Shown here: positions 8,463 to 55,029 of the stretch, piece after piece
How positions within the stretch are numbered: the stretch's first letter is position 1
Layout of the letters: every line of letters starts with the position of its first letter
IMG/VR virus record: IMGVR_UViG_3300037067_011041
Span: 53,328 to 117,327 of that record
From: a virus
Lineage: Duplodnaviria; Caudoviricetes
Reading direction: 5' to 3' (one strand)
DNA length: 64,000 nucleotides
The notes under the pieces: model-generated
Told to the model about the DNA's origin: nothing
What the model saw: the letters and a program-made list of their open reading frames with translations, nothing else
Databases searched by the model: none
Position numbers and translations under genes: made by a program

Positions 8463-8534
8463 AGTGGACGGGAGGCAAGGCGTCTTGCGGGCCTCATAAG
8501 CCCGTAGAGGTGGGTTCGATTCCCACGTCCACAA
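8463..8534 (+). tRNA. tRNA-Met(CAT), atypical, initiator-like
   Basis: A1:A72 mismatch, GTGGAC/GTCCAC, CGGGC-CTCATAA-GCCCG, GTGGG-TTCGATT-CCCAC; D loop only about 5 nt. Confidence 0.75.
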
Positions 8535-8536
8535 CT

Positions 8537-8606
8537 TGGAGGGGCATGGCGCGACCGGGTGGATGCTAGCGGCCCGGCATGGGTGGTTCAAATCCACGCC
8601 CTCCAG
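8537..8606 (+). ncRNA. D-armless tRNA-like RNA
   Basis: acceptor TGGAGGG/CCCTCCA, T arm GTGG-TTCAAAT-CCAC, central stem CCGGG/CCCGG with an 11-13 nt loop, no D stem. Confidence 0.65.
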
Positions 8607-8912
8607 TTTCACTTTTACCTTTTCACTTTTCAGGAGTCACACGTGCCAACAACTTTGAAGCCAGCGACAGACGGTGTTATGTTCGACGAACTTGACGACG
8701 GCCAGCTTGTTGTCGTCTTGAGTTCCGACCAAGATTACGATATCGGCAAGATCGCTCAGCGGCATGGCGACTGGCTGGTCATGGTCGGCGAGCCAGAGTC
8801 GGAAACTTACATGGAACCCGATGAACATGAACTGACCTTCCGAGTGCTGGCCGATGGTGAGTTGATCGCCGTAACTGACAACGGCTAAACATACCGAACA
8901 CGAGAGCAAGCC

Positions 8913-12773: not shown

Positions 12774-13685
12774 ATGAGATCGAATTCGTCTTCTGTGCGT
12801 CCAATCATCTTGTCTTGTGTGGCGGTCGTTGCTTTGATCGTCGGCCTCATCATGGGTTGCAGTTCCTTTGAGGCGATCCCGGCCGGTAACGTCGGCGTGC
12901 CCACACTGTTCGGAAACGTGGTAGAGAAAGCCTACTCTGACGGCATGCACTTCCCCGTGAACCCGCTGTACTCGTGGACGCTGTACGACTGCCGACAAAA
13001 GAACCTTGATTGCCCGCAGATCCAGGTGCCTACGAAGGATCAGCAAACGTCGCAAATCGACTTCAGCGTACAGTACAGGATCGCAAGCACGTTGTGCCCG
13101 AAGGCCAAGTCGGAAATTGGCAACGCCGAAGACATCGTCTCTGTCCGAGTGCTGCCCAATCTCAGGTCGTTGGTTCGATCCGAAGGCAAAGGAGTAGCCC
13201 GCTGTGAAGACCTGTTTGATGAGGCTGTGCAGGCCGCGATGGAAGTCAACTTGCAGTCACGGTTGCAGCAAAAGGTTGGCGAGTACGTTGTCATCGAAGC
13301 TGTTCTAATTCGCAACGTCGCCCTGCCCGAGCATATCAAGGAGGCCATCAAGAGCAAGAAGGTTCGCGAGCAGAAGGCCGAGGAGCAGAAGGCCGAGTTG
13401 GCGCGGTTCGAGACCGAGCAGCAACAGAAGGTGAAGACGGCCCAAGCCGAACGCGAGGCCGCCGAGGAAGAGGCCAAGAAGGTCACCGTCATGGCGGATG
13501 CAGAGGCGTATGAGATCAAGGCAATCAATGCCGCACTGGCCGACAGCCCGAACTTCATCCGTCTTCGTGCCCTCGATACGCTCAACGAATTGTCCAAGAA
13601 CCCGGCGACCCAGTTGTACTTCCTCAATGGCGACTCGCCCGACCCGCTTCCCTTGATGCACCTCGGTGCCCCTGTGACGAAATAG
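12774..13685 (+). CDS. SPFH/prohibitin (band 7) membrane protein
   Basis: TM helix, IPAGNVGV...FG, GMHF.NP, TKDQQ, AE/EA-rich coiled coil. Confidence 0.92.
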   Translation: MRSNSSSVRPIILSCVAVVALIVGLIMGCSSFEAIPAGNVGVPTLFGNVVEKAYSDGMHFPVNPLYSWTLYDCRQKNLDCPQIQVPTKDQQTSQIDFSVQYRIASTLCPKAKSEIGNAEDIVSVRVLPNLRSLVRSEGKGVARCEDLFDEAVQAAMEVNLQSRLQQKVGEYVVIEAVLIRNVALPEHIKEAIKSKKVREQKAEEQKAELARFETEQQQKVKTAQAEREAAEEEAKKVTVMADAEAYEIKAINAALADSPNFIRLRALDTLNELSKNPATQLYFLNGDSPDPLPLMHLGAPVTK

Positions 13686-13695
13686 CGTAGTCTCG

Positions 13696-13721
13696 CTGTG
13701 GGCGACAGTCGTCGCCCGCAG
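13696..13721 (+). terminator. stable hairpin (terminator or processing signal)
   Basis: CTGTGGGCGAC/GTCGCCCGCAG; no U tract. Confidence 0.45.
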
Positions 13722-13724
13722 TCT

Positions 13725-13810
13725 GGGTTGTGTCCCTCACGGCGGACTGTAAATCCGTTGTCATTAACTAGTGAGGTGGCTGACAAGAGGTTCAATTCCT
13801 TCACAACCCA
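13725..13810 (+). tRNA. non-canonical tRNA-Tyr(GTA)-like RNA, D-armless
   Basis: GGGTTGTG/CACAACCC plus A discriminator, GCGGA-CTGTAAA-TCCGT, long variable arm TTGTCA/TGACAA, GAGG-TTCAATT-CCTT. Confidence 0.7.
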
Positions 13811-13857
13811 CTAACTTACAATGAGGTAGCTGTGAGCACACTTGATATACTGGCCAT

Positions 13858-14601
13858 GTGCGGATCGTTCGTCTTAATCATGATGATTCCAATCCTGTCT
13901 CGGAGAATTCCGTGAACTTCAAGCGTAAGAAGATCCGTGGGCAGAACGCCAAGACCAAGCGAACCTGGATGGATGATGACGGCAACTACCGCATCACATG
14001 GTCTACTGATATCGCCGGTATCAAGATGGATGCCCCTGTTATCCATGCGTGCGTTTTCACGGACTGGGGCTGGGGCTTCGCTGGTAAGCGGGGCCCCTAC
14101 AAGACGGTGAAGGCGGCCAAGCAGGCTTGCGAGTTCAACAAGGAACTTTGGGATGCGTTCCTGTCTATGGAGGGCCGCGACAAGATAGCCCAGTACAATG
14201 TGCTGCGACACAAGTCGATGGTGGGCAGCGGTAAGAGCGCGGTGTCGGCCATGTCCGATATTCCATTGTGGGTGCTTGGGCTGGCCGATGAGCGGCAGTT
14301 GTCAATCATCTGCCCCAAAAGAAAAGGCGACGAATGCGATTACCAGGACGACCCTACGCCAATATCGAACATTTCAGACGCATCTACCCATGGTCAAAGT
14401 GGGGAAAGCCAATCAAGTACCCCTGTACCAGATGCTCCTGTGAAGGCTGCCCGGCGTGCAACGGCACGGGAAAAGGGACGAAAGAAGAACTCGAAGCCCT
14501 CTACAACAAAACGATCCGGGACTGGGAAGACGCGTACAAAGCGATCTACAAGTACAACCAGTTCATCGCGTCGCTCACGACAAAAGAAAGAGAAATCCTA
14601 G
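13858..14601 (+). CDS. hypothetical protein with a basic low-complexity tail
   Basis: 247-aa ORF; tail overlaps the next gene. Confidence 0.6.
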   Translation: MRIVRLNHDDSNPVSENSVNFKRKKIRGQNAKTKRTWMDDDGNYRITWSTDIAGIKMDAPVIHACVFTDWGWGFAGKRGPYKTVKAAKQACEFNKELWDAFLSMEGRDKIAQYNVLRHKSMVGSGKSAVSAMSDIPLWVLGLADERQLSIICPKRKGDECDYQDDPTPISNISDASTHGQSGESQSSTPVPDAPVKAARRATAREKGRKKNSKPSTTKRSGTGKTRTKRSTSTTSSSRRSRQKKEKS

Positions 14602-34841: not shown

Positions 34842-34852
34842 CTTCTCTCCAG

Positions 34853-34950
34853 TGGAGGTGTCCGGAGTCGAACCGGAATCCTAGCCGTACTCGCTACTTA
34901 CACATGGGCCTTTTCGCTCAAACGCACGGTAGTCGAAACCTGTCACCCCC
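34853..34950 (-). ncRNA. minimal tmRNA-like RNA (tRNA-like domain only, 98 nt)
   Basis: 5' GGGGGTG-ACAGGTTTCGAC and 3' GAT-TCCGG-TTCGACT-CCGGA-CACCTCC-A; G3:U70 Ala identity; stemless D loop; about 50-nt insert. Confidence 0.82.
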
Positions 34951-54390: not shown

Positions 54391-54955
54391 ATAGTAATTC
54401 GGAATTATTCCCGGCCGACTTCGGCACCCATCGTATGCTAGTTGATCTTGAGTTGTTTGTTGATGGCTTCAAGTTGCGCTTCGATCTCTGCCTTCTCTTG
54501 CAGTAGCTTTGCGCGGGTGTTGGCATAGCCTGCCGGGATGCGTGTCGCCTTAACTTCCGACAGCTTCAGGCCATAGCCCTTGTTATCGTCGAAGAAAGCG
54601 CGAATATCGTTCTCGGCCCCGATCGCGTAGCCAAGGAGGTACGGCGGGCCGTTGCTTTGCGTACCGCTGACAGCCACGATTGTCTCTTGGGCCCTCAGCT
54701 TCATCCGTTTGATCTCGCTCACAAGGTCGTAGACAAGGCGATGAGGCTTGTCTTTCCACGTGTCGGCTTGCTCACCGATGCCAGACGGACCTAGTTTGTA
54801 GTCCTCAAGTTCTTTGTCGGTCATGAGCGGTCGCTCCTGCTCTCGCCGAAGAAATTCTGCTTCCTGCCTTTTTCGCTCTTGCATTCTGCAATCCTGTTGA
54901 TATTGGTGGAAGGCACCTGATTCTTCTGGATATGAGACCATTTCAGTTCTCCTAG

Positions 54956-55029
54956 TAGCTTGGGTGGGAGTCGAACCCACAGCATTCCTGGTTCTAAGCC
55001 AAGATGGTCTGCCTATTGCCTACCAAGCT
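54956..55029 (-). tRNA. tRNA-Leu(TAG) with a short variable loop
   Basis: AGCTTGG/CCAAGCT, CTTGG-CTTAGAA-CCAGG, GTGGG-TTCGACT-CCCAC. Confidence 0.85.

Follow-up and report, generated by a model that had tools for sequence, protein, structure and literature searches.

A tyrosine tRNA-like gene of phages and bacteria with a putative pseudoknot in place of the D hairpin

We describe a tRNA-Tyr-like gene of 86 nt that occupies positions 13725-13810 on the + strand of the window, by which we mean the whole stretch of 64,000 nucleotides that was analysed, which makes up the second half of an IMG/VR phage record of 117 kb. We put at roughly 0.8 the probability that it encodes a working tyrosine tRNA (GUA) with a re-wired, pseudoknotted core, an RNA that would be charged by TyrRS, adopt the L-shape and decode UAY codons. 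The D hairpin is missing, and the strand that follows the acceptor stem is instead predicted to pair with the loop of the variable arm, across the stem of that arm. An earlier note on this DNA had proposed that such a pseudoknot replaces the D stem. We assembled a set of 107 distinct relatives, from uncultured phages, from genomes of Planctomycetota and from four cultured Pseudomonas phages, and found that both the helix between the D strand and the variable loop and the variable stem that crosses it covary; the pairing of CCTCAC with GTGAGG, which the note had wanted checked by covariation in homologs, passed that check.

Structure of the gene in the window

The sequence of the window copy was read directly, and all of its helices are intact (Table 1). 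Only 9 nt (TC, CCTCAC and G, 13733-13741) separate the acceptor stem from the anticodon stem, as in all 107 relatives, and because of this short gap a D hairpin is impossible, so that the note was right in finding no D stem. The DNA strand CCTCAC (13735-13740) is exactly complementary to GTGAGG (13771-13776), which had also been noticed from the letters. The 8/4 acceptor/T arrangement proposed there was read again here, with an 8-bp acceptor stem and a 4-bp T stem (12 bp in total in this copy), and it is conserved in the family. The variable stem had been drawn as TTGTCA/TGACAA, and this needs correction in part. A stem exists, and covariation backs TGTC/GACA (13759-13762 with 13782-13785), to which the window copy adds one extra pair, A13763-T13781, but the first T of the proposed stem (13758) is taken up by a G-U pair of the anticodon stem. 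A single A lies between GACA and the T arm.

Table 1. Elements of the tRNA-Tyr-like gene in the window.
Element	Positions	Strand	Sequence and remarks
Acceptor stem, 5' strand	13725-13732	+	GGGTTGTG / GGGUUGUG; 8 bp with 13802-13809
Linker, 2 nt	13733-13734	+	UC; counterpart of U8-N9
Replacement D helix, 5' strand	13735-13740	+	CCUCAC; runs directly into G13741 and the anticodon stem
Single purine, position-26-like	13741	+	G; joins the replacement helix to the anticodon stem
Anticodon arm	13742-13758	+	Stem GCGGA/UCCGU, loop CUGUAAA; A36-A37-A38 retained
Anticodon	13749-13751	+	GUA (DNA GTA)
Variable stem, 5' strand	13759-13762	+	UGUC; pairs with 13782-13785
Connecting loop, A/U-rich	13763-13770	+	AUUAACUA; connects the variable stem with the relocated D strand
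Replacement D helix, 3' strand	13771-13776	+	GUGAGG; inside the variable-arm loop
Segment after the relocated strand	13777-13781	+	UGGCU; GG at 13778-13779 is a candidate G18-G19 counterpart
Variable stem, 3' strand	13782-13785	+	GACA; crosses the replacement D helix (putative pseudoknot)
T arm	13787-13801	+	4-bp stem GAGG/CCUU (one G-U), loop UUCAAUU
Acceptor stem, 3' strand	13802-13809	+	CACAACCC; pairs with 13725-13732
Discriminator	13810	+	A73; CUA comes after; no encoded CCA

We then compared the gene with the models of known tRNAs. ARAGORN called none of the 107 relatives and left the window copy uncalled too; its mitochondrial mode and relaxed thresholds, applied to the window copy, gave no call or nonsense folds only. 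The window copy had no match to Rfam RF00005 at the gathering score, and its best Rfam match was tRNA-Sec (RF01852), at 29.8 bits against a gathering score of 47. Membership in tRNA-Sec failed on this score and also on the anticodon, which is GUA and not UCA. Among the features of a canonical tRNA, the acceptor stem and discriminator stacked on the T arm and the 5-bp anticodon stem with its 7-nt loop and U33 are all present, and the D hairpin and detection at the gathering threshold or by a tRNA finder are lacking. The features of a bacterial tRNA-Tyr, namely GUA, A73 and a variable stem that is present and covaries, were found. The minimum-energy fold of the window copy (-28.4 kcal/mol, z = -2.2) is a nested one without the pseudoknot, and pairs GUC (13732-13734) with GGC (13778-13780).

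Covariation in the family and the proposed architecture

Many relatives came from two pattern scans of viral contigs, one of which required an anticodon arm of the tyrosine type together with a T loop and an over-long gap, and the other of which left the anticodon stem free. Both scans left the D-like strand, the strand that it pairs with and the variable stem unconstrained, and the viral search pattern made no demand for the GG. When one genome was scanned for each prokaryote species, 10 matches appeared, 8 of them in Planctomycetota, and a covariance model built from the first alignment was then used to find further copies. The RNAs of the family are 82-93 nt long. Other routes gave less: blastn of the 801-nt region and of one relative (L018) against 50,697 GenBank phage records returned no match at strict E-values, an exact 23-nt pattern had no match, and the upstream SPFH protein as query had no relatives among viral contigs. 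The Pseudomonas phage copies surfaced only by a relaxed search, followed by the covariance model. Pairs were counted for the pseudoknot-containing structure in alignment A1, a structure-blind MAFFT alignment of 70 distinct relatives, and counts for the set of 107 come from a script parse of the sequences, the model-based alignment A2 being one that mis-registers the 3' strand in some rows.

In A1, 100% of the cells of the replacement helix were paired, and five of its six pairs changed on both sides; one of them, for example, appears as UA in 39 sequences, CG in 19, AU in 5 and GC in 5. Among the 107 relatives the helix is complete (6/6) in 98, with 36 different sequences of the 5' strand. The pairing between the D strand and the variable loop is well above chance: a 6/6 complement followed by YGG occurs in 94 of 107 relatives, compared with 0.3% when the variable region is shuffled. 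The variable stem was paired in 98.9% of cells with three of its four pairs compensated (A1), and all four pairs form in 98/107 relatives, the third of them as CG (66), UA (18), GC (18) or AU (4). The covariation score of the whole structure was 0.474, against 0.140 for shuffles (0 of 500 reached the observed value) and 0.109 or less for slid partners, and in the 107-set none of 1000 shuffles attained the observed pairing, either for the replacement helix or for the variable stem. Because these two covarying helices cross, a pseudoknot that takes the place of the D hairpin is supported. Covariation indicates that each helix forms, which is not in itself proof that they form simultaneously.

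The remaining elements were conserved to different degrees. All eight pairs of the acceptor stem covary, with 99.8% of cells paired in A1. There are 31 distinct anticodon stems in the 107-set, with covariation at all five pairs, two-sided compensation at pair 30-40 being seen in one sequence only. In the T stem, two of four pairs covary and 84.3% of cells are paired (A1). The linker is UU in 88/107 relatives, and the purine equivalent to 13741 is G in 83 and A in 19. In A1 the GG just past the relocated strand never varies, and YGG stands there in 102/107. Loop lengths keep within narrow ranges, mostly 7-9 nt (87% A+U) for the loop that leads into the relocated strand, 4-6 nt past that strand and 1-2 nt before the T stem.

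From these features we propose the following architecture. The 6-nt strand after the 2-nt linker would pair with a strand in the loop of the variable arm, and the variable stem would close round it to give an H-type pseudoknot, with the A/U-rich loop lying along the groove of the new helix. This helix would stack on the anticodon stem and stand in the place of the D stem. Its 5' strand, continuous with the anticodon stem, would occupy canonical positions 21-25, and the partner strand would run in the direction of positions 10-15, with the GG one nt later, near G18-G19. The relocated strand and the GG would then act as positions 10-19, the GG probably touching the T loop; what is normally the first half of the D arm would now lie in the variable loop. 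One limb, of near-normal length, would consist of the 5-bp anticodon stem, a single purine and the 6-bp replacement helix, and the other limb of the 8/4 branch; together they would restore an L-shape of normal size. The GG could instead pair with the U-rich linker, as it does in the minimum-energy fold of the window copy; a UU linker could form G-U pairs with it.

Tyrosine identity and alternative readings

The anticodon is GUA in all 107 relatives and A73 is kept in 105, which upholds the assignment of the GTA anticodon loop and A73 to the tyrosine type. The anticodon loop is CUGUAAA in 104/107, A36-A37-A38 is retained in 105/107, and the T loop is canonical. The phage loci are large tRNA arrays. 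ARAGORN called 16 or more tRNAs in 41 of them, and in 38 of these 41 it called none for Tyr. By its calls, ten arrays have tRNAs for 19 amino acids with Tyr as the sole gap, a slot that the present gene fills; these loci were selected for carrying the gene, and a canonical Tyr gene could lie beyond the fetched stretch. Two arrays (L068 and L090) hold both a canonical Tyr gene and one of the present kind. The nearest tRNA gene was co-oriented in 96/96 cases, at a median gap of 10 nt, and the presence or absence of an encoded CCA agreed with the neighbouring tRNA genes in 75 of 80. We infer that in phages with large tRNA arrays this gene serves as the tyrosine tRNA. Because tRNA gene finders miss the present Tyr gene, phage tRNA sets seem to lack tyrosine, which skews studies of tRNA complement and codon use. 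In the 117-kb genome of the present phage we found no other tRNA-Tyr or tRNA-like element with a tyrosine anticodon and no TyrRS. Because the phage encodes no TyrRS, we assign the charging to the TyrRS of the host, which would load an RNA that decodes UAY codons.

The same conservation bears on what else the gene could be. It might be a tRNA-shaped decoy, regulator or sensor, which binds or soaks up a protein acting on tRNA-Tyr (a defence nuclease or a modification enzyme) and delivers no tyrosine to the ribosome. In support of this, the same phage has other cut-down tRNA-shaped RNAs (a mini-tmRNA and the odd Met and Ser-like genes described below), cells with the gene also hold a canonical tRNA-Tyr, and tRNA-Tyr is a known target of defence, since it is destroyed by retron-Eco7 PtuAB and infection can be rescued by tRNA-Tyr genes of phages (PMC11555353). 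We nevertheless consider such a role unlikely, because filling the only empty slot in ten arrays of 19 amino acids fits a working isoacceptor, and because A73, A36-A37-A38, the 12-bp acceptor/T branch used by EF-Tu and the neighbour-like handling of CCA are all conserved. It is also quite improbable, in our view, that the RNA is a switch whose two helices belong to alternative folds, one with the anticodon stem extended by CCUCAC/GUGAGG and the other with an ordinary variable hairpin. Covariation is blind to whether the two helices coexist, and the nested fold alone is the predicted minimum-energy structure. Against this, the narrow loop lengths suit an H-type pseudoknot, and with the variable stem open 12-16 nt would be loose at the core of an otherwise tRNA-sized molecule. 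Decay can be given almost no credence. A tRNA-Tyr pseudogene with a deleted D arm and a chance complementarity would explain why ARAGORN and Rfam give no call and why close relatives of the phage are without the gene, but every helix has been maintained by compensatory changes in a set of 107 distinct sequences, whose phage and bacterial sources are very diverse.

A working tyrosine tRNA with a pseudoknotted core is the reading that we prefer, and its fold may have a further purpose. Because tRNA-Tyr is a documented target of bacterial defence, a defence-evading fold is an attractive idea. The RNA could be a hardened tyrosine tRNA that escapes nucleases or defences that act on tRNA-Tyr and read the D arm or the elbow (host systems similar to retron-Eco7 PtuAB, or the host shut-off of a phage itself), and that is still accepted by TyrRS, EF-Tu and the ribosome. 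It might then be part of a larger group of class II tRNAs that were re-built in phage and mobile arrays, beside the short Leu and odd Ser genes. We offer this suggestion as tentative and rather doubtful; a counter-defence design would suggest that bacterial immunity often targets tRNA-Tyr.

Relation to known tRNAs and distribution

The gene shares with canonical class II tRNA-Tyr of bacteria and phages (RF00005; for example the ordinary genes L138, L163, L165 and L166 of Planctomycetota genomes that also carry the odd one) the GUA in CUGUAAA, A73, G1-C72, a variable arm that forms a stem, a canonical T loop and a 12-bp acceptor/T branch, and it too is found within tRNA arrays. It differs in having no D hairpin, in carrying the partner of the D helix and the GG in the variable loop, and in an 8/4 rather than a 7/5 branch. 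A tRNA shape with non-cloverleaf connectivity is also generally known from two other systems. In plant-virus tRNA-like structures of the TYMV type, the acceptor arm, which lies at the viral genome's 3' end, is made by a pseudoknot, and the permuted tRNA genes of Cyanidioschyzon yield a normal cloverleaf after processing; in the present family, in contrast, the re-wired D region would persist in the mature RNA.

The (8/4) allo-tRNAs have a long D stem with a tetraloop (Mukai et al., PMC5389517), and the statement in the earlier note that they keep their D arms agrees with that description. Together with 8/4 tRNA-Ser and tRNA-His they share with the present family the 8/4 split, the long variable arm, the location in phage tRNA clusters and the resemblance to tRNA-Sec, whereas here the D hairpin is gone, a long-range helix takes its place, and the identity is tyrosine and not serine or histidine. 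The D-armless mitochondrial tRNAs (metazoan mt-tRNA-Ser(AGY) and those of nematodes) likewise have no D hairpin and a short connector between acceptor and anticodon stems; they are shrunken and flexible, with an unpaired replacement loop and adapted partner proteins (PMC7609411, PMC9427863). The RNAs described here are, in contrast, of full length (82-93 nt), have a connector paired to the variable loop, and occur in phages and bacteria, whereas all D-armless tRNAs found in the searched literature were mitochondrial. The earlier note had called the topology undescribed, and we likewise found no description of it in the literature searched, which included PMC5389517 and the review of non-canonical tRNAs PMC7609411 and had most subscription journals outside its coverage. 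According to a 2024 paper (PMC11551756), every known bacterial tRNA is a cloverleaf, and the present fold, if true, would be an exception to that statement. A connectivity of another kind would then also be acceptable to TyrRS, RNase P, EF-Tu and the ribosome, and the fold may offer a new scaffold for orthogonal tRNAs.

In the window the gene sits in a gap of 172 nt, between an SPFH-domain gene on one side and a gene of unknown function on the other. A promoter and terminator scan of 13500-14000 found none. A G+C-rich hairpin without a U tract (GGGCGAC-AGUC-GUCGCCC, 13700-13717, +) lies 7 nt 5' of the tRNA and 15 nt past the SPFH stop; it may mark a site of processing or the 3' end of the mRNA, and the SPFH gene and the tRNA would then seem to be co-transcribed. 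Just 3' of the tRNA, a possible hydrophobic ORF of 27 codons with a GTG start and GAGG ahead of it was read by eye at 13843-13926 (+). The three phages closest by PolA (L002-L004) are without the gene and without the SPFH locus, and because these close relatives lack it, the gene is dispensable in this phage lineage. The window copy is nearest to copies from Phycisphaerae, with 83-84% identity and, in both, no encoded CCA, which would fit a planctomycete host.

Several other tRNA-like genes of this phage are unusual. In an odd tRNA-Met at 8463-8535 (+), the first pair is A-A, the D stem has 3 bp and the anticodon stem 6 bp. It is directly abutted by a Ser-like gene of 72 nt at 8536-8607 (+), which ARAGORN detects at a relaxed threshold only; the anticodon of this gene is GCU, its acceptor stem has 8 bp, its D arm is tiny, and it lacks a long variable arm. 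A short tRNA-Leu without a long variable arm lies at 54955-55029 (-), and a tmRNA match of about 100 nt at 34850-34950 (-) covers the tRNA-like domain only (Rfam RF00023, 49.3 bits).

The distribution in Planctomycetota is sporadic, with copies in 6 of 151 sampled genomes. Four of the carriers (G004, G006, G007 and G008) each also have a canonical tRNA-Tyr, and because of this no examined genome depends on the odd gene; the idea that it is the sole tRNA-Tyr of Planctomycetota was rejected on these grounds and on the small number of carriers. In the complete Planctomycetaceae chromosome CP030884.1 the gene lies between a C92 amidase gene and cheW-mcp-cheR, and a second Planctomycetota species has the same arrangement (loci L122 and L123), with protein identities of 72-97%. 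The upstream non-coding sequences of these two loci are alike too. We rejected the view that the cellular copies are prophage cargo only, since two species share this chromosomal locus among chemotaxis genes. Other Planctomycetota copies are in arrays ordered Leu(cag)-Tyr-Leu(gag)-Ser-Cys-Ser. The tRNA-Leu genes that flank the odd Tyr gene (L116, L117, L168, L172 and L173) are 73-79 nt long and have no long variable arm. The present phage has a short Leu gene as well. All three class II tRNA types thus appear to be re-built in these arrays.

The covariance model also identified unannotated copies in cultured Pseudomonas phages, so that the design is directly testable. In Lyrsu03 (L198, PP179314.1, 463-547) the copy lies 7 nt before an annotated tRNA-Pro, and Lyrsu01 and Lyrsu02 gave the same match as Lyrsu03 by blastn only. 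In SCYZ1 (L199, MH518298.3) the copy occupies 582-667 of the locus. An ordinary unannotated tRNA (Rfam, 61 bits) follows directly at 675-747 in this phage.

A second subfamily with the same topology and a 7/5 branch was noticed in large phage contigs of 29-441 kb; it comprises six loci (L041, L050, L066, L086, L094 and L112), too few sequences for firm covariation. In it, the partner of UA-ACGGC is GUCGU, or GCCGU in one copy, and AUUGG comes after this partner within the variable loop. Four of the six loci (L041, L050, L086 and L112) lie within about 2 kb of a canonical tRNA-Tyr gene.
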